DNA from: Escherichia phage SDYTW1-F1-2-2_3
Sequence record: OR296290.1
Strand: one strand, 5' to 3'
DNA: 64,000 bases
The notes under the pieces are model-generated. The model was given only the letters and a program-made list of their open reading frames with translations. It was not told the DNA's origin and did no database searches. Positions 19,859-47,051 of this stretch are shown here, one piece after another. Position 1 is the stretch's first letter; every line of letters starts with the position of its first letter. Position numbers and translations under genes: made by a program.

Positions 19859-20163
19859 TTGTTAACCCTCGTTAATATGTATTTAGTTTTTATGTTTCAC
19901 AAGATAGCACATATTTCTACTTCATACGTAGGGTCATTGCTCAGTTGACCACTTCACTGACTCGATAGTGTCCCAGCTTTCACCAGTCAATCGCAGAGTC
20001 CTTATCTTTAAACATTCTCCACTACTTAGGACGATTATCCTTCATGGAGCTTACTACCATCTAGCTACTTTGCATCACTGCTTCGCTTCGATGAATACAA
20101 TTTACTACTTCTTAATAAAGAAAGCAAGTCCTACGGGTAAAATATTTCTACTATCTCTATAGG

Positions 20164-20570
20164 ACGGGGAACATACAACCGCAGAACAGACCACGGGGAA
20201 ACATAGCAAGATAGTGCGGTAATAATATACCACTTAAATAATTGTATAACTCAAACATCAAAGACCATTCGCTACGCTCATGCACGCTGAAAAAGAAAGT
20301 AATAAAAGAAATAATAACATACATCAATCATTATCCACTTAATTAATACATACATCATTATTGCACTCATAATCATCACTATTGAAACTATTTACATTCA
20401 AACTATGGGGAACGTGGGCTATTACTTATGGGTATTATATCGCCTTAAACTATTGGTACAGTGAGGGACTAGCCTTTCTCTCACTCAGTAAAGGGGAACT
20501 AAATAAACGGGTAGGTAATGAATAGGATGGTATACACGGGGAAAGAATAACGGGGAGTAGGCACGGGGAA
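20164..20570 (+). repeat. ACGGGGAA-type G-rich repeats flanking an AT-rich core with a DnaA-box-like TTATCCACT
   Basis: Copies at about 20164, 20193, 20406, 20492, 20536, 20550 and 20563; TTATCCACT at about 20331. Confidence 0.55.
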
Positions 20571-20765
20571 AGGTTGGAACGTTGATAGGGATGTAAAGGC
20601 ATTGCCAATAACCATTTTTTATTTGAGGACTCCCCCTTTTTAACAATTCGCCGCGGGGTGCCTAGCCCCACTCGGTCAAATCAGAATTTTAAACAGATAT
20701 ATACATCTTTATTTTTTATAAATCTGTATTTTAAACTCTTATATATAAGGTTAAGAGAGAACTTA

Positions 20766-20927
20766 ATGAATCTAATTAAAGTATTTAGACGGATGAAGTG
20801 TAAGCACAATTACTATCTTCTTCGTAAAGCTTACGGGGATGAAAGAATACATGGTCTCTACCTATCAACATGGAAGTGTAAGGAATGTGGTAAGTTGAGA
20901 TTCAGTACATGGGTGGATAGGCCTTAA
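20766..20927 (+). CDS. small zinc-ribbon-like protein
   Basis: Track ORF trimmed to ATG 20766; MKCKH...WKCKECGK Cys pairs. Confidence 0.35.
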   Translation: MNLIKVFRRMKCKHNYYLLRKAYGDERIHGLYLSTWKCKECGKLRFSTWVDRP

Positions 20928-20936
20928 CGTGACATG

Positions 20937-21020
20937 GCCTTTATGACATGAGGGTGCCTTTATGAAGTCCCCTTTACATCAGAGATTATGGGTAGGCCTT
21001 TAGATGATAGTGCCTTTATG
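20937..21020 (+). repeat. four direct repeats of GCCTTTATG upstream of the structural genes
   Basis: Copies at about 20937, 20956, 20996 (variant GCCTTTAGATG) and 21012. Confidence 0.5.
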
Positions 21021-21055
21021 GGTAAAACCCCTCCCTTTTCAGAGGAGATATAAAA

Positions 21056-21328
21056 ATGATTCTAGACTTTTTATCAGAGTTGATTCCTTACTTCCGCACT
21101 GAAAAATGTGCATTTAAAGTTGAAGAAGTTGGGGGCACTGAAGTAATAACTTGTTTGGGTAGATTAGTAGACCTAGACGATGATGAAGATTTTGATGTTA
21201 CAATAGACCTGAGTTCATTGGGCTGGTTGTACATGAGATGCTTTGTAACCTACAAGGCTGAGACTTATAAAGACTATCGTTATAGTGATAACACTGACAC
21301 TGACACTGAAGGAGAGAATGATGAATAA
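21056..21328 (+). CDS. acidic hypothetical protein
   Basis: 90 aa, Asp/Glu-rich C-terminus; ATG with GGAG SD. Confidence 0.45.
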   Translation: MILDFLSELIPYFRTEKCAFKVEEVGGTEVITCLGRLVDLDDDEDFDVTIDLSSLGWLYMRCFVTYKAETYKDYRYSDNTDTDTEGENDE

Positions 21329-21977
21329 CAATATGACAGGAACTAATACACTGAATGCAATCTATGAGAACATGGGATGTAAAGGCGAGGTTGTTTTCAA
21401 TGGTGGTCCTCTCCGTCCTTTATCAGAGGACATTCTCTATCTGAACCGTGTTCATGAAACTACTGGAGGTAAGTCCCAAGTTGAGATGGTAAAACAACTG
21501 GCTCATGGTTCTGTGTATGGTTATGCTCCTCCAACCCGTGAAATATGGGAAGGTTTGATTCCTCGTACAGAAGCTAAAGATGTGAAAGACTATTTCACTG
21601 TAGCAAAGGAAGTTAAACGTAAGTGTCCTTCCAATCTAGAAGTTGTTCCGTATGTATCTACTAAACATGATCATCTCCCTGACTATGCTCGTGCAATGAT
21701 TGAGATGATTGAAGAAGCTGAATATGAAATGCTCCATGATTACATTACCTCCAAAGACGAATGGCATCGTGATGTTCGAATCGAAGAGGATGGTACGGAA
21801 ACAATTACGTGGATTCACAAGAGTGAGTTAGTAGACGACGCACTGCGAGACTACGAAAAATTTTTGGTCGACGGCTCTATTCTTTTAGAGGAAGAGAAGG
21901 GTGTAGAACTTCCGTGGGAGGGTGAGATAGTTACTTTAGGTAAGATGTTTAACCTGTCCGTTGGTGATTGTAAGTAA
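21318..21977 (+). CDS. hypothetical protein
   Basis: Start at tandem ATGs 21318/21321 overlapping upstream stop. Confidence 0.45.
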   Translation: MMNNNMTGTNTLNAIYENMGCKGEVVFNGGPLRPLSEDILYLNRVHETTGGKSQVEMVKQLAHGSVYGYAPPTREIWEGLIPRTEAKDVKDYFTVAKEVKRKCPSNLEVVPYVSTKHDHLPDYARAMIEMIEEAEYEMLHDYITSKDEWHRDVRIEEDGTETITWIHKSELVDDALRDYEKFLVDGSILLEEEKGVELPWEGEIVTLGKMFNLSVGDCK

Positions 21978-22033
21978 TGTTTGCCTCCCTTGGGAGGCTT
22001 TTTGTGTTGTTGATAATGTAGAAGGAGTATAAA

Positions 22034-22507
22034 ATGTTTGGAGAAAACGGAGAACTCACACCTGCACAGGTAGCTGAGATTACAGGAAGATTACCCGGAG
22101 TAACGGAAGAACTTGAAGGCCGTGGTATGAACCCAAGCAATGGGAAGTTTCAAAAGGGAAATAAATTCGGACGACCCAGAGGTAGTAGAGGTAAACTGAC
22201 ACAATTAATGTTGGACCGTGTTGCTGCAAGTCATTTGTCTCCTGATGAAGTGTTAATTCAAATTTACGAAGATCCTAATATTCCACCTGATCTTAGATTC
22301 AAGGCTGCATCAAAAGTTGCAGATCTGGTATATCCTAAGGCGGCCTCTGTTGAAGTTAAGATTGAGGAAGAGAATGTAATTAACGAAGAATCATTGAATG
22401 CACAAATCAAGGACTTCTTGACTGGAGCACTTGGTATCGATGTTATGCCTCCAGAAGAAGACAACTCTGAGGACGCTGAAAAGGGGGAGGAAGCGGACGA
22501 GAGTTAA
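22034..22507 (+). CDS. terminase small subunit (putative)
   Basis: 157 aa directly upstream of large terminase; basic GNKFGRPRGSRG DNA-binding-like segment; acidic C-terminus. Confidence 0.4.
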   Translation: MFGENGELTPAQVAEITGRLPGVTEELEGRGMNPSNGKFQKGNKFGRPRGSRGKLTQLMLDRVAASHLSPDEVLIQIYEDPNIPPDLRFKAASKVADLVYPKAASVEVKIEEENVINEESLNAQIKDFLTGALGIDVMPPEEDNSEDAEKGEEADES

Positions 22508-22668: not shown

Positions 22669-24210
22669 ATGTCATTAGATAAACAAATTTATGAAGCTCT
22701 AACTGGTAACAATCTTAGTGTAGAGGAAAAGAAAGCACTATTGAATATGTTGAAAGAGCGTGACCAATGGAGGAAGTATAATAGGATTTTGTCTTTCAAG
22801 GCGTATGACTTCCAAAAGAAATTTTATGCAGCAGGATTGAAGCATCGCTTTAGATTCTTGTGTGCAGCGAACCGTGTTGGTAAATCTTATAGCGAGGCAT
22901 ACGAGTTTGCTTGTCATGTCACAGGTCGCTACCCAACTTGGTGGACAGGATATAAATTTAAAAGACCTATCTTAGCATGGGCAGTTGGTATTACAGGGGA
23001 TTCCACAAGGAAAGTATTGCAAAAGGAATTGTTTGGTACACCTATCGGAAAGGATACAAACTTATTAGGGACAGGTGTCATTCCTCGTGATGCTATCGTC
23101 ATTGATACGATAGAACGAGATGGTAACAAACTTCAAATCGTACAAATCAAACATCAAAATGAGAGAGGAGAGTTTGACGGTTTAAGTACATTAGAATTCC
23201 GTTCAACCCAACAGGGTGAACACACATTGATGGGTGCAACAGTTGACTACATTTGGTTAGACGAAGAAGACCCATACGAGTCTATGGCTATATTCGCACA
23301 GTGCGTCACACGTACACTCACAACTAAAGGTCTAGTTACAATTACAGCTACACCAGAGAACGGTTTAACTGAACTGGTAGATAAATTTATGAAAGGTGAA
23401 GGGGATGAGAACACAGGTTCTCTATATTTCCAGAATGCTTCTTGGTGGGATGCTCATGCAGACCTAGGTGGACACATCACTGACCAAGATATAAAAGATA
23501 TGACTGAAGGTATTCCAGCGTGGCAGTTAGAGATGCGTTCAAAAGGTATGCCATTGTTAGGAAGTGGTTTGATTTATGATGTATCGGATGACACAATTAA
23601 ATGTGAACCATTCGAAATTCCTGATACGTGGAAACGTGTCTGTGCAATTGATATTGGTATTGATCACCCAACTGCTGCTGTTTGGACAGCTTACGACGCA
23701 AACACGGATACTATCTATGTTTACGACTCATATAAAGAAGGTGGCTTTACTCCAGTGTATCATGCTCCAGCTATTAATGGTCGTGGTCAGTGGATTCCTG
23801 TCATCCTACCGCATGATGCGGACAATACTGAGAAAGGTAGTGGCTCATCTGTTGCTCAATTCTATAAGAATGCAGGAGTTAACGTACAGAGTGAGACCTT
23901 CTACAACAAAATTGGAATGGATGGTAAAAAGAACTTCTTTGTAGAACCGGGAATCACAGATATCCGAGAAAGAATGATGAGTGGACGCTTTAAAGTCTTT
24001 AACACAGCCGCTAACGCTAAGCTATTCGAAGAGAAAGCTAGATATCACCGTAAGGTTGGTAAGATTATTAAAGAACATGATGACTTAATGGATGCAATGC
24101 GCTATTCAGCTTGCTCTGTTACACATCGTGGTCGCTCTAAGCATGATGTTAGCTACGGAAGCGCTTCTTTGTATGAGGCAAACGTAAGCAGATGGAATCA
24201 GAGCTACTAA
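22669..24210 (+). CDS. terminase large subunit
   Basis: 513 aa; Walker-A-like AANRVGKSY; size and position before portal; strong GGAGGAAG SD. Confidence 0.8.
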   Translation: MSLDKQIYEALTGNNLSVEEKKALLNMLKERDQWRKYNRILSFKAYDFQKKFYAAGLKHRFRFLCAANRVGKSYSEAYEFACHVTGRYPTWWTGYKFKRPILAWAVGITGDSTRKVLQKELFGTPIGKDTNLLGTGVIPRDAIVIDTIERDGNKLQIVQIKHQNERGEFDGLSTLEFRSTQQGEHTLMGATVDYIWLDEEDPYESMAIFAQCVTRTLTTKGLVTITATPENGLTELVDKFMKGEGDENTGSLYFQNASWWDAHADLGGHITDQDIKDMTEGIPAWQLEMRSKGMPLLGSGLIYDVSDDTIKCEPFEIPDTWKRVCAIDIGIDHPTAAVWTAYDANTDTIYVYDSYKEGGFTPVYHAPAINGRGQWIPVILPHDADNTEKGSGSSVAQFYKNAGVNVQSETFYNKIGMDGKKNFFVEPGITDIRERMMSGRFKVFNTAANAKLFEEKARYHRKVGKIIKEHDDLMDAMRYSACSVTHRGRSKHDVSYGSASLYEANVSRWNQSY

Positions 24211-29507: not shown

Positions 29508-29535
29508 CGTTTTAAGACCTATACAAGCTAGTGTG

Positions 29536-29544
29536 TAATGTATA
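29536..29544 (+). promoter_or_regulatory. TAATGTATA promoter-like motif (candidate phage-sigma-dependent late promoter)
   Basis: Exact TAATGTATA 33 nt upstream of ATG 29578, just after capsid terminator. Confidence 0.4.
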
Positions 29545-30339: not shown

Positions 30340-33300
30340 ATGATCGTTTATAATAACCAAGCACCTGATGCAGTGAATAACGTTGGGCAGTTTGGTGCTA
30401 CAGAAGGCTCTATCGGAGCTTACAAGCAAGCAGCAGAATATGCAGCTGATTCTAAGTATTGGGCATTACTGGCTGAGTCTAAGTTTGGCACAATCGATGA
30501 TCTGATTGCTGAAGTAGAACGTCTATATCAACAGGGTGTTCTGATGCAGCAAGACATTGAGGCTTTGAAGCAGGATTTTAGAGACCAAGATGCTCATTTA
30601 ATGCAACTTATCGCTCAGACTAACGCAGCTGTTTCTGATGCACAGAACGCTCTGGCTCTTATGGACCAGAAGCTGATTGAAGTTCAGGAACGACTGGATA
30701 TTCTGTTAGGTATGTCTGTTGACGTCACTACACTTCCTCCGGGAAATGAAGCTTCTGGGCATTTTGACCCTAACACTGGTGTTATCTCTTTGGGTATCCC
30801 TCAAGGTGTTCCGGGTAAAGATGGTACAGTAACAGATTTGAATAACGCACCAACCGGTGTTCCTGTTCTTGGTGATGTAGGTTTCTATGTTGATAAAGAT
30901 GACAACACTGTTCACAAAACGTCTTTAGAGAATATTGCAAACCTTATCCCATCTGTTCGTTCTATCTCTGTAAACGGCGGTCCTGCTGAGAGTGGTGAAG
31001 TTGCTCTAACTCTTGACAAAAGTACTGTTGGGTTAAGTAATGTAGAGAACGTGGCTTCTTATAGTAAAGAGGTTGTTGATAACAAAGTTGATGGTTTTAT
31101 TAAAACATACAGCTCTAAAGCTGAAGCGGATGCAGATGCTGTTAATCGTGAGGCTGGAGAAACTGTTTTAGTGTGGGAAAACACTCAGTATGTTTTCTAC
31201 AAAGTGGCTGCTGATAAGATTCTAGATTTAAGTAAAACAGAACCTCGGGTTATTACTGTCAACTCTCGTATTCCTGACTCTAGCGGTAACATTGATATTA
31301 CAATCCCTACAGGGAACCCATCCTTGTATCTAGGTGAATTATTGATGTTCCCTTATGACCCATCTCGCCCTATTTCTTATCCTGGGATTTTACCTGCTGA
31401 CGGTCGTTTGGTGTCCAAGGATTTGGCTAGCGATTTAGGTGCTTCTTTAGTTAGTGGTCAGCTTCCGGTTGTGTCTGAGACAGAATGGCAAGCAGGTGCT
31501 AAGCAGTATTATTCTTGGGGTAAACTGGCTGATGGGCTGACTGATGCAGACTCTACCAACTACATCAACATCCGTCTTCCTGATTGGACTGGTGGTGAAG
31601 CTATTAGATCTCCTAACCTAACTGGCGATGCTTCTTATGACGGTAAGCCATTAGATCAGAAACCTTACATCGTTACTGTTAACGGAATTGCTCCTAACGA
31701 TATCACAGGAAACGTCAACATAACAGCTGCAAATATAGGCGCTTTGGCTAAGTCTGGTGGTATCATGGACGGAAACTTAGTCCTTAACAAAGCTGTATCT
31801 TTACGCAGAATAAAGGATAATGACACTCAAGTTAACATGGTATCGAGAAGTGACTCTGATGCTTCTGTACTTGGTGACCACTTAGCTAAGACTGTAATAG
31901 CTTCTTCCGAGACACCAATCTTCTCTAAACCGGAAGGGGATTATAAGTTTTATACAGAGGATAACAAACCTACGAACGTTGATGTTGGTGCTGCTGGTAT
32001 TGATGTTAATGGTGTAAACTCTGACATAAAAACTTTCACTCAAAAGGTTACGTTCCAGCAACCTGTTACTGTGGCAGATGCTGTTGGAGACTATGATGCT
32101 GTTACCTTACGTCAACTAAGAAACCAAGGTGGTGGAGGTGGCGGTTCTACGATGAATGGTATCTCCAACTTCAATATTGGTGATTTCCGACTAGTAGATA
32201 GTCGAGCTTTTATCCAAGCAAATGATGTTGTGTCTGATGGTCAACTTTTGAACAGGGCCGAGTATCCTGAGCTTTGGGCGTATGCTCAGATGCTCACCCC
32301 TATAGAGGATTCTGAGTGGATTTCAACCCCTTCCAAGAGATCTCAATATTCACTAGGAGATGGCTCTACTACATTCCGTGTCCCTGATAGGAATGGTGTT
32401 CAGAGTGGCTCTGTTAAGGCTTTATATGGAAGAGGTGACGGTGGAGGTTCTTACGGAGGTATTTATGATAGTGGGATTCCTGACATAACTGGTCAGTTCA
32501 GAGCTTATGGATACAATGCAGGTGAACCTACAGGTGCATTTGGTTCCTATAATAGTGGTAGCGCTGAGTTTGAATTAAAATCTACATCTGCTAATTTTAC
32601 TAGGTACAACACATTCACCATAAGTGCCGGAAGGGTTAACTCTGTTTATGGAAGAGCAGACGAGGTCAGGCCTAGATCTTTCGTCGGTGTATGGGTGATT
32701 CGTGCTAAAGGGGCTTTCATCGCTGCCAATACAACATGGTCAGTAATTAATAGTGACACCTCTCGTCCTTCTGACGGAACCACTGTGACTGGTGGTAATG
32801 TAATATCTGAATATAAAGTAGGGGCAGAATCTGAAGGTTCAGCCGAGTTCCGAATGGTTGGAACGATTGGAAGCTCTTATTCTGCTAGAATTGGTGTTTA
32901 CAACAAAACATCAAGTAAAGGAACTACTTTTGATTTTACTGAGGCCGGTAATATAGAGACTCCCAAAGGTCGTGTTTTGGTGAAAGGGGATTACGGTGTT
33001 GGTGCTCAGGGAAGTGTTGTATTACCTGAAACTAACTATAACCAGCTCATAACAGATTCAGATGGTGCCTCATCGTGGGCAGCTGCTAATGGAGGGGGTA
33101 TACAAACTTCCTATGCCGTAAATAGAATCTGTCAATTTTGGGTAAGTCTGAGTGGTTCGGCTTATATCAGATCTAATACACTGAACAACAACCCAAAAGA
33201 ACTCAAATCCAATCTTCCGTGGACAACTCTCCAGAATGCTGGAACCTCTGACGCAAATGTCAAGGATATTGGAGATGATTTAGATTTAAATGTCGCTCTA

Positions 33301-45342: not shown

Positions 45343-47022
45343 ATGCAACAGACAACTTACGCTCAGGTCAGAAGTCGTGACCCGAGAAATACTTTCTATG
45401 GTGTTAATCCGGGAGCGGCTTCGGCCTCTCCTTATATGGCTAGACCTACTCAGACAGCGGATGTTTCTATGTACCAGCGTCCTGCTGTACCTTCATCTCT
45501 CGCAGGTCTTGTCTCTCAGGCAGAAGAAGATCAGAATGCTATGGTGAATCCGGGATTCCAGCAACGTCTTATGGAACAACAGAATCAAGGAACCCCAACA
45601 AGTCTTCAGGGTATTGACATTGGAGCACCAGCCCCTGTAGCAGCTAATCCTAATTTATCTACTGATCAAGGTTTGCAGGATGCTGGACTTATGCCTAGTG
45701 ACCCTCTTCCGGTGACACCTCCTGCCAAGCCACTAGAAACTGGTCCTATGGAGTTTACTCCTTCTCAGGTTGAACAAGCACAAGGTGTTGTTAATACTCT
45801 TGCTCAAGGACAAGACACCGGTGACGGAATGGCTGCTGCTACTCGTACTAAAGATCAAGAGCGTGTTAACAATGATATCTTGCAAGTTGCAAAAGCTAAA
45901 GATCCTTCAGAAGCTTGGAAGAAGTTACAGAAAGAACCTTTCTATCAGAACTCTAGTTTCTATACAGGTTTAATGGGTGTAGGTCTTTCTATCATGTCAG
46001 GTAAATCTCCTATCGAAGCATTCCAGATTGGTCAGGGGATGGCTAATCAAGATGAGACTAAAAAGCAACTGGAAGCTAACCGTGATGCTCTGATTGAACA
46101 AGGTTTCTCTCAAGACTCAATTGCAGCTGCTATAGCTCAGGGTGATCCTTCTCTTCTGAAGATGAAAGCTAAAGACCCTCTTCAACAGGAAGCTCTGTAT
46201 GCTGCTCGTGAAGAACGTCAGAATGCTGAGTGGGATAGACGTCAAGCTATCAATGAAGAATCTGCTGAGAGAAACCGTAAGGCTACTTTGGAAAATCAGT
46301 TAGCTCTGGCGGAAGCGCGTGGTGAGATTACTCGCGACAACCTTTTGTTCAAGAAGGATCACAATGTTCGTAGAACATCTCCCAAGTGGGAAAAAACAGA
46401 GGAGCTTGGTGGTATTACTCCTAACTTGCGAGATAAATTACAGCAATCTTATCGTCCTGTTATTAATGTCCTAGCTTCTCGAAACAAGTGGATGGCTCCT
46501 ACAGAGGCTGCTATTTCTAAACTAGGAACTGGTGCAAATTCTCAAGAGAACTCAGCTCAGCAACGTGCTGCTATTGAGAACTTGACTAAACTTATTCAGG
46601 GTGGTTTAGCTTCTATTAACGGAGAAGTTATGAATGAGCTTACAGGTGATCCAGATTGGGTTAACAACAAGTTGAATAAGATTCAGATGATGGCAGGTCA
46701 AGGTCCGACCGAAGCAAATATCAAGTGGCTTAAAGCACTCGGTACAGAGATTCAAGAGATTGATAAAGAGGCAACTAAGTACCAAGTAGCCCCTCTAGTG
46801 GAATCTTTGATTCTTGATAGTGGTTTGGCTCCTGAAAATGCTATCAGAGCTGCTAACTCTATTTTTGCTCCTGGCTCTGTTCGACTCACTACTGAGGAGT
46901 TTAAAGAATGGTCTCGTGGACATAGTAAAGTTCACGATAAAACATTCCCTGATGACAAGCCTTCTAAATTGAAGGGTGGTGCTTTATCTGGTTCTTCAGA
47001 TACTAGCTGGTTCACTCAATAA
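45343..47022 (+). CDS. virion structural/internal protein
   Basis: 559-aa ORF in structural block. Confidence 0.45.
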   Translation: MQQTTYAQVRSRDPRNTFYGVNPGAASASPYMARPTQTADVSMYQRPAVPSSLAGLVSQAEEDQNAMVNPGFQQRLMEQQNQGTPTSLQGIDIGAPAPVAANPNLSTDQGLQDAGLMPSDPLPVTPPAKPLETGPMEFTPSQVEQAQGVVNTLAQGQDTGDGMAAATRTKDQERVNNDILQVAKAKDPSEAWKKLQKEPFYQNSSFYTGLMGVGLSIMSGKSPIEAFQIGQGMANQDETKKQLEANRDALIEQGFSQDSIAAAIAQGDPSLLKMKAKDPLQQEALYAAREERQNAEWDRRQAINEESAERNRKATLENQLALAEARGEITRDNLLFKKDHNVRRTSPKWEKTEELGGITPNLRDKLQQSYRPVINVLASRNKWMAPTEAAISKLGTGANSQENSAQQRAAIENLTKLIQGGLASINGEVMNELTGDPDWVNNKLNKIQMMAGQGPTEANIKWLKALGTEIQEIDKEATKYQVAPLVESLILDSGLAPENAIRAANSIFAPGSVRLTTEEFKEWSRGHSKVHDKTFPDDKPSKLKGGALSGSSDTSWFTQ

Positions 47023-47042
47023 GACCTAAGTCCTGCCTTCTA

Positions 47043-47051
47043 TAATGTATA
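47043..47051 (+). promoter_or_regulatory. TAATGTATA promoter-like motif
   Basis: Exact TAATGTATATA 38 nt upstream of ATG 47090. Confidence 0.4.

Follow-up and report, generated by a model that had tools for sequence, protein, structure and literature searches.

What is the function of the short direct repeats that cluster near the left genome end of phiEco32-like coliphages? We considered this question for 64,000 nucleotides (nt) of Escherichia phage SDYTW1-F1-2-2_3 (record OR296290.1; the whole 64-kb stretch is called the window below). It represents the circularly permuted genome of a coliphage of the Kuravirus group (phiEco32-like, Gordonclarkvirinae), with pEC-N1203-2Af.1 (93%) as the best DNA match. 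An earlier note, made from the letters of the window, had drawn attention to four closely spaced copies of a 9-mer, GCCTTTATG, one of them with a 2-nt insertion, and had proposed a multimeric protein-binding site, such as a pac-like small-terminase recognition site or a late-gene activator site. Our analysis revealed an array of six bipartite units running head to tail, conserved among relatives, unique in each genome, and constantly associated across clades with the direct terminal repeat (DTR) and with terS, the gene of the small terminase homologue (TerS). Protein binding, TerS as the binder and a purpose in packaging are what we infer from this distribution. The array is probably a cis-acting protein-binding array of the genome-end apparatus, and the chance that it serves as a TerS/packaging platform, similar to pacB or cosB, falls somewhat short of even.

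Exact copies of GCCTTTATG were located at 20937-20945, 20956-20964 and 21012-21020 on the + strand and nowhere else in the window, and the copy with the 2-nt insertion, GCCTTTAGATG, at 20996-21006, so the closely spaced repeats of the earlier note are real. Two further copies of the core had been missed. CCCTTTA stands at 20970, and GCCTTAACGTG, at 20921, shares bases with the stop codon of a 53-codon gene (20766-20927). Within 120 nt there were five GCCTTWA cores, while the largest cluster in 300 random Markov-1 sequences of 64 kb had two. The 9-mer itself is not the repeat unit. When 55 core copies were aligned from the equivalent region of nine Kuravirus-like phages (the window and eight relatives), RTG (A/G-T-G) was found at -8 to -6 in 52 of them and a purine at -5 in 52 as well; positions -4 to -1 were variable, and in the core, [G/C]CCTT[T/A]A, the CC, the TT and the final A were invariant. 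The real unit is thus a 15-nt bipartite site, RTGR-N4-SCCTTWA, conserved at 11 of its 15 positions, with the two conserved halves centred about 10 nt apart, i.e., one helical turn. Tiled units follow one another at a step of 14 or 16 nt. At the 14-nt step the final A of one unit doubles as the A of the next ATG, and therefore GCCTTTATG is the joint between two units; at the 16-nt step the joint reads GCCTTAACGTG or GCCTTTAGATG. Of the 26 units without another unit directly in front, about 24 (as read from the copy list) also kept the RTG at the right distance; the RTG therefore belongs to the unit and is not a by-product of tiling.

The unit pattern RTGNNNNNSCCTTWA had seven matches in the window, a number not attained in any of 100 shuffles (expectation, 1.17). 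Six of these matches, all on the + strand, start at 20913, 20929, 20948, 20962, 20988 and 21004 and make up the array (20913-21018), with steps of 14-26 nt and with the first unit 250 nt from the terminal repeat; the seventh is isolated at 32706 on the - strand. Unit 1 (GTGGATAGGCCTTAA, 20913-20927) overlaps the last codons and the TAA stop of the 53-codon gene, hereafter gene 1, and is followed at a 16-nt step by unit 2 (GTGACATGGCCTTTA, 20929-20943) and then by unit 3 (ATGAGGGTGCCTTTA, 20948-20962) and unit 4 (ATGAAGTCCCCTTTA, 20962-20976), which has a C-type core and is the best conserved unit across the relatives. A TCAGAG box (20979-20984, + strand; read from the sequence, TCAGCG or TCAGAG in the relatives) closes this first half. 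The second half consists of unit 5 (ATGGGTAGGCCTTTA, 20988-21002) and unit 6 (ATGATAGTGCCTTTA, 21004-21018), of which a version with a GTG start lies inside the coding region in the metagenomic relative L017 (relatives' loci are given by L numbers), and it ends at a TCAGAGGAG box (21039-21047), also on the + strand, which is at the same time the Shine-Dalgarno sequence of the gene starting at 21056.

On what level are these sequences constrained? Over units 1 and 2 the window was identical to phiEco32 and SU7 at 32-33 of 33 positions (97-100%), while the body of gene 1 was only about 70% identical. Through TerS homologues (69-77% identity) we reached four metagenomic relatives, L017, L018, L021 and L022. 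Their first gene encodes a homologue of the 218-amino-acid (aa) protein that is encoded downstream of the array in the window, and its 5' coding part contains the units. In L017, five cores occupy two reading frames of a 269-aa open reading frame (ORF), one frame translating as A-F or P-F and the second as P-L. The constraint therefore acts on nucleotides, as the invariant CC, TT and final A and the excess identity of units 1 and 2 over gene 1 also indicate, and a peptide repeat is ruled out; the frames of the motif likewise differ in the g002 ORF of 4E8 and in L017. We also considered a relay of mini-ORFs, in which each unit would be read as RTG NNN NNS CCT TWA (M-x-x-P-stop or M-x-x-P-L-stop) with stop and start overlapping in TTATGA, and which would lead to termination-reinitiation or to Pro-stop stalling between gene 1 and the next gene. 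Such a frame is regular by construction; the stop codon of gene 1 opens the chain, and ATGA overlaps are common. However, ORFs of 4-5 codons were present in only 19 of the 55 units, four units had no start codon, four stopped after two codons and all the rest ran for 10-58 codons. Moreover, no synonymous variation occurs in CCT and TTA, which again places the constraint on nucleotides; Shine-Dalgarno sequences are lacking, the last ORF of the window passes the start of the next gene, and the variants of other clades do not encode Pro-stop. We consider such a relay highly improbable.

The units are confined to a single locus, as is expected of a terminase recognition site. In the complete genome of phiEco32 (77.5 kb), six of seven forward units lie at 403-672, and each copy of the terminal repeat carries one inverted unit at 124-138. 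In the window, too, six of seven units belong to the array, and the complete genome of Cronobacter phage GAP52 (76.6 kb) has all three of its forward variant units at 1495-1575, with one isolated reverse match elsewhere. A scan of IMG/VR with two tiled units returned 30 loci, among which arrays were present only in three Kuravirus-like contigs and the others were single chance matches. A host element was rejected, as 5,426 complete Escherichia coli genomes contained no match.

Among the nine Kuravirus-like phages the number of units ranged from four to seven, no two arrangements were alike, and the exact arrangement of the window was found in no database phage. The units stay while spacers, copy number and neighbouring genes change. 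Of 15 Kuravirus-like genomes, 13 have the first unit about 150-350 nt after the conserved DTR block, and two, L019 and L023, lack one at this place. The halves of the array are separated or preceded by inserted small ORFs, namely phi32_2 and phi32_3 in phiEco32, a small membrane-peptide ORF in 4E8, ECBP2, KBNP1711, L018 and L021, and an extra ORF flanked by a duplicated ribosome-binding-site cassette in NJ01 and N1203. This cassette, TTATTCAGAGGA(G/T)AAGAAT(T)ATG, lies on both sides of an extra 36-codon ORF at 1647-1672 and 1783-1806 in L008 (NJ01) and forms a pair at 2076-2103 and 2213-2238 in L003, which suggests that a gene was inserted there by recombination. The hydrophobic, membrane-like peptides of about 25 aa (e.g., MEWIFWLVIIFSLFICFSIARCIKYD) are encoded immediately upstream of arrays, near gene 1 or before terS, at 471-550 in L001 (4E8), 717-800 in L004, 687-765 in L005, 3815-3892 in L018 and 3814-3893 in L021; this ORF and the array seem to move together as a module.

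Such plasticity could mean that the units are recombination scars or junction cassettes of a hyperplastic region, devoid of any binding function. The PeSL elements of T4 offer the parallel: in both systems the early ORFs of a hyperplastic region are small and variable and have short non-coding modules repeated on their flanks. PeSLs, however, combine a promoter with a stem-loop and are scattered through the genome, whereas no promoter or hairpin belongs to the units described here, which are limited to a single locus. The differences in copy number and arrangement from relative to relative, the small ORFs between array halves and the lack of any database phage arranged like the window all favour scars. 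Neutral remnants would decay, though, whereas 11 of 15 positions are conserved, the RTGA half is kept into other virus families, and about 24 of 26 untiled units retain the RTG at its proper distance. Scars are therefore a very unlikely explanation.

The association with terS became apparent in remoter phages, those with a TerS about 45-57% identical to that of the window, i.e., Salmonella phage 7-11, GAP52 and Proteus phage P59 (Grimontviridae) and Aeromonas phage APT65. All four have a long non-coding stretch upstream of terS that contains a DTR-like block, CCCC(C)TTTT, and about 100-300 nt past this block there are three to five direct units of the form RTGA-N3-4-core. The left half, RTGA, is the same as in Kuravirus, and the right half is clade specific, reading SCCATC in 7-11, GGCATC and CCCATC in P59, CGCATC or CCCATC in GAP52, CGCATG in APT65 and CCCCTTCA (given also as CCCTTCA) in L023. 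The succession of repeat block, array and terS is common to these four phages and L023. Altogether, an array lies 60-290 nt upstream of terS in nine relatives (L017, L018, L021, L022, L023, 7-11, GAP52, P59 and APT65) and about 1 kb upstream of it in the window; in L017, L018, L021 and L022 it is a second array of 2-3 units, 60-110 nt before terS and followed by a TCAGCGG box. Across all these genomes the DTR block and terS/terL travel with the array, and gene 1 and the 218-aa gene do not. Apart from the units, the gene-free 0.85-1.7 kb before terS (1-1750 in L009, which is 7-11; 800-2520 in L056, P59; 1-848 in L057, APT65) are densely filled with several further families of short direct repeats, among them four copies of GATGTTATAACGTAACA in 7-11 and numerous copies of ACTATG(R) in P59.

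In the window, the left end opens with a conserved promoter-like stretch, which is followed by gene 1, the array, the genes of 90 and 218 aa, a terminator, a gp36-type promoter and the late operon. Gene 1 (20766-20927, + strand) encodes a 53-aa Cys/His zinc-ribbon-like protein with a weak zinc-finger match. Directly downstream of the array is the 90-aa gene (21056-21328, +), a homologue of phi32_4, followed by the 218-aa gene (21321-21977, +), a homologue of phi32_5 that is labelled "ABC transporter" in databases without Pfam support; a search for relatives' loci with the 90-aa protein returned only two. After an intrinsic terminator (21983-21998), the gp36-type promoter TAATGTAGA (22014-22022, both on the + strand; PMC4281155) starts the late operon, in which the TerS homologue begins at 22034 and TerL, with Terminase_6N and Terminase_6C domains, at 22669 (22669-24210, +). 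The distance of about 1 kb to the terminase genes given in the earlier note was thus correct, and its placement at the head of the structural module only approximate: the array belongs to a small left-end operon beside the DTR, separated from terS by a terminator and a promoter. In SU10, hypothetical sigma-70 promoters led to the prediction that the first left-end genes (CDS 1-3) are early, and the late genes start at the terS homologue (PMC4281155).

Considering that the array is always followed by a gene, a local operator has to be weighed. A phage or host protein would bind the units, in DNA or in early mRNA, and control transcription or translation of the following gene, i.e., the 90-aa and 218-aa genes in Kuravirus and terS in the relatives; the zinc-ribbon protein gp1, with its weak zinc-finger match and a gene that adjoins the array, is a possible binder. 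Every array ends in a TCAGNG box and a ribosome-binding site immediately before a gene, and in the nine relatives named above it occupies the place before terS where Kuravirus has the late promoter. In Grimontviridae-type phages, a unit is followed 13-15 nt on by TTCAGTGTA(A), which gives the look of a two-part promoter (unit-N14-TTCAGTGTAA). In complete genomes, however, the units and the TCAGTGTA box are restricted to one locus: both forward TCAGTGTA boxes of GAP52 are at the array and one reverse copy is elsewhere, and, as the units are confined there too, they are not a general class of promoter in Grimontviridae. Homologues of gp1 are absent from 7-11, GAP52 and L017-L022 and present in unrelated Klebsiella and Acinetobacter phages, and unit-like sites also occur in the DTR, upstream of the promoter-like region, one of them inverted.

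Known promoters and RNA elements fit the array no better. The element of gp36 promoters is AATGTA, centred at -11.5 (PMC12276001), with the consensus AATGTA or tAATGTAtA about 7 nt upstream of the start (PMC4281155, PMC12276001). Between 20900 and 21060 there was no match to the gp36 promoter within one mismatch, and TAATGTATA-like sites were located at 22014 (the nearest), 29536, 47043 and elsewhere. The array lacks AATGTA and its units do not accompany other promoters of the genome, so that the suggested late-gene activator or sigma-factor site finds no support as a general promoter element. Nor did it contain a sigma-70 promoter (no TTGACA-N16-18-TATAAT-like pair), and the region 20915-21060 folded no better than shuffles (z = -0.05) and had no credible Rfam match, so no RNA-structure signal supports an operator in mRNA. 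Taken together, an operator is unlikely, and it is nevertheless the main rival of a packaging site; an origin or ejection signal, scars and mini-ORFs are all less likely. As a separate observation on gp36 promoters, two of the perfect -10 elements (TAATGTATA), in the segments 29514-29544 and 47021-47051, both have the octamer AAGACCTA exactly 14 nt upstream, which may be the -35 element contacted by the C-terminal domain of gp36. The octamer loosely resembles ATGACCT, the left half of the units of 7-11, GAP52 and P59.

Where does the array stand relative to the genome ends? The DTR is 193 bp in phiEco32, SU10 and YF01 (PMC4281155, PMC9965538) and is annotated in 4E8 (1-206, 206 bp) and Paul (1-193, 193 bp); the linear records of many relatives start within this part of the genome. 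From homology to the termini of phiEco32, Paul and 4E8, the window would contain one collapsed 193-bp copy at 20471-20663, with the boundaries GGGACT|AGCCTTTCTC and GGTGCCT|AGCCCCAC by alignment. The DNA left of 20471 then is the right end of the virion genome, and the array lies 250-355 bp inside the left DTR, its end being set by homology. These phages have T7-like DTRs and do not package by the headful pac mechanism. Of the proposals in the earlier note, a multimeric protein-binding site, possibly for a small terminase, remains the best-supported reading, if only indirectly.

Between the DTR and gene 1 we also observed a 26-nt direct duplication (20678-20703 and 20720-20745, 81% identical) of a promoter-like AAATCAGAATTTTAAAC...TATATA segment; the window, 4E8 and NJ01 share the duplication, and phiEco32, Paul and SU7 have one copy each. 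In the window, TTTAAAAC stands before a perfect palindrome, CTTATATATAAG (20738-20749; often CCTTATATATAAGG), which lies 55-100 nt after the DTR block and also occurs at 282 in L001, 283 in L002, 226 in L006, 3016 in L017, 3071 in L018, 2850 in L019 and 3213 in L022. It is kept even in distant metagenomic relatives and matches a "promoter" annotation of 4E8, without fitting the sigma-70 consensus.

Sites resembling the unit were also found in and around the terminal repeat. The most conserved DTR block, TTGAGGACTCCCCCTTTTTA (20623-20642, +; ATGAGGACTCCCCCTTTTTA in phiEco32), lies 21 nt from the right DTR boundary and resembles the best conserved unit, unit 4; a conserved region at nt 130-170 of the terminal repeat has been described (PMC9965538). 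An inverted unit-like site at 20594-20608 (- strand, reverse complement TTGGCAATGCCTTTA) is a perfect unit in phiEco32 and SU7, and the terminal repeat itself starts with GCCTTTC or GCCTCTC. Just left of the left boundary, at the right end of the virion genome, a GCCTTAA core is followed by an ACAGTG box (20442-20463, +). A GCCTTWA or CCCTTTA core is present about 27 nt before the left cut at the junctions of the window, NJ01, N1203, ECBP2, KBNP1711 and 4E8. It is no universal feature, being absent from the phiEco32 and SU7 junctions, and a link between this core and the array is therefore at most partial. All eight junctions have a (T/A)CAG(T/G)G box 2-7 nt before the left cut, which echoes the TCAGNG box that closes each array.

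Two other repeats of this region deserve mention in their own right. A second family, ACGGGG or AYGGGK, occurs on the + strand at 20130-20200, 20405-20435 and 20507-20568; five of the nine forward ACGGGG copies of the 64 kb are at 20164-20568, three inside the DTR and two about 300 nt to the left. The pattern is present at both ends of phiEco32 (66, 80 and 93; 77042 and 77071), and ATGGGT or ACGGGT is interleaved with units in the relatives (GCCTTTACGGGT). In addition, an identical 12-mer, GGATGTAAAGGC (an inverted unit core plus CATCC), is found in the DTR at 20589-20600 and inside the 218-aa gene at 21376-21387; the latter copy had no counterpart in the core scan of phiEco32.

Is the product of 22034-22507 (+ strand) a plausible binder? 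It is 100% identical to the YF01 protein annotated as "putative terminase small subunit" (PMC9965538), and the position of its gene immediately before TerL fits a small terminase. A profile of 40 TerS homologues searched against the PDB gave small terminases as the top two matches (7joq, E = 0.0026, and PaP3 6w7t, E = 0.045), both covering the oligomerisation core only. A single-sequence phmmer search of TerS against the PDB yielded nothing, and the Pfam match to DUF5681 was below threshold. The PaP3 TerS binds a 20-mer, GCCGGCCCCTTTCCGCGTTA, that contains CCCCTTTCC (PMC7672466). As the TerS of the window is probably a remote homologue of the PaP3 type (PMC9965538), and as the 20-mer includes CCCCTTTC, comparable with the unit core CCCCTTTA and with the DTR start GCCTTTC, this may serve as a lead for recognition of the array by TerS, though not as a test of it. 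The two cases also differ: a single 20-mer rather than an array was used for PaP3, the resemblance of the motifs is short, and the N-terminal DNA-binding parts of the two proteins do not align.

Comparable arrangements exist in well-studied phages. In lambda cosB (R3, R2 and R1 for gpNu1) and in SPP1 pacL/pacR, several small-terminase sites lie between the cut and terS, and the order DTR block, array, terS of 7-11, GAP52, P59 and APT65 is that of cosN, cosB and Nu1 in lambda. Lambda, however, has cohesive ends and SPP1 packages by headful; their sites are within about 50-170 bp of the cut and have no sequence similarity to the putative sites described here. T7 is likewise a podophage with a short DTR (160 bp, and 193 bp here) that packages from concatemers, and it has short direct repeats with a period of 13-16 nt just inside the left repeat. 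We counted 12 CCTAAAG/CATAAAG copies at 175-361 in T7; the repeat itself holds a further three, and another three lie to the left of the right repeat. The arrays flanking the terminal repetition were reportedly named SRL and SRR by Dunn and Studier in 1983. The T7 7-mer abuts the repeat, whereas the 15-nt bipartite unit starts 250 nt away, past the promoter-like region and a gene. The sequences are unrelated, save that the reverse complement CATAAAGGC resembles CATAAAG in the opposite orientation, and the far side of the repeat carries the ACGGGG/AYGGGK motif here. The T7 pattern, i.e., one and the same repeat on both sides of the DTR and within it, was not found in the window, which has one core to the left and one inverted and one degenerate unit inside.

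Tandem direct repeats near a genome end are also typical of replication and entry elements, so that the units might be iteron-like origin sites or a pause signal for ejection, of the sort proposed for the injection stop of T5 and the left end of T7. We know of no established function for the subterminal repeat arrays of T7, which leaves room for such a role, and the corresponding non-coding terminal region of GAP52 contains three perfect DnaA boxes (ACTTATCCACAGG). However, the units differ from DnaA boxes, they have no linked initiator gene and nothing ties them to ejection; the array of the window has no initiator gene, AT-rich unwinding element or DnaA box beside it, and the DnaA boxes of GAP52 are 900 nt from the array there. 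The annotated replication proteins are T7-like and do not need iterons. A role in replication or entry is thus quite unlikely. The boxes of GAP52 are an observation in themselves: each ACTTATCCACAGG contains the consensus DnaA box TTATCCACA, they lie at 462-474, 554-566 and 621-633 of L010 (GAP52), within the 1.7-kb non-coding region before terS, and they may mark an origin close to the genome end or a site for a host factor there.

A packaging platform is supported by the strand-specific clustering of the units, their single locus, their DTR-linked position in spite of changing gene content, the layout shared with homologous TerS genes in remoter phages, and the unit-like blocks near both cuts (at distances of 21 nt on the right and about 27 nt on the left, with termini placed by homology). 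Several findings weigh against it. In Kuravirus proper, 250 nt with the promoter-like region and gene 1 separate the array from the nearest cut, and 1 kb with two genes and a terminator separates it from terS; the distance to the cut, about 150-350 nt across the relatives, exceeds that in lambda or SPP1. The array is situated in a presumably early-transcribed region directly before ribosome-binding sites, which fits regulation too. L019 has no array, phiEco32 and SU7 have no core before the left cut, and the DTR of the window is placed at 20471-20663 by homology only. Gaps are required to match the unit to the DTR block or to the PaP3 cos 20-mer, and the likeness could be coincidental. The AlphaFold (AF2) model of TerS is of mediocre confidence (pLDDT 68.5), and with it Foldseek ranked 6w7t second and third without significance (E about 1).

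In the reading that we favour, a packaging platform, the six head-to-tail 15-bp bipartite sites would serve to load an oligomeric, sequence-specific protein, with the ring-forming small terminase as the prime candidate. Bound there, this protein would label the concatemer junction on the side nearer to terS and might help the large terminase to find and nick the repeat boundaries (CT|AGSC) and to start packaging. This role would be comparable to those of pacB in T7, the cosB R sites in lambda and pacL/pacR in SPP1; the TerS of T7 recognises pacB at the concatemer junction (PMC9860248). Elements of this kind are known, both as repeat arrays beside DTRs and as multi-site terminase recognition regions, and the distinctive bipartite unit makes the array a new member. 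The repeats are not described in the papers on SU10, SU7, YF01 and Privateer, an earlier mention in the primary phiEco32 papers (Savalia 2008; Pavlova 2012) is possible, and a full-text literature search for GCCTTTATG returned only unrelated primer sequences.

The recognition of concatemer junctions by the terminases of short-DTR phages is poorly understood, even in T7, and Kuravirus phages are both candidates for therapy and a model for sigma-factor takeover. The array provides a defined, conserved and mutable candidate packaging site with natural variants across clades, which might be used for transducing particles or for packaging-deficient, biocontained phages. If it were a regulatory operator instead, it would represent an unrecognised control point at the left genome end. 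We tentatively suggest, while regarding it as doubtful, that the array is a specificity element for the terminase of short-DTR podophages, in which a TerS ring would read a modular 15-bp code with a constant RTGA half and a second half co-evolving with TerS, the code being present also at the repeat boundaries, inside the repeat and through coding sequence in two frames. If this is true, about 100 sequenced phages from several virus families would offer a tractable system for studying how TerS finds its DNA and how the ends of the DTR are measured.

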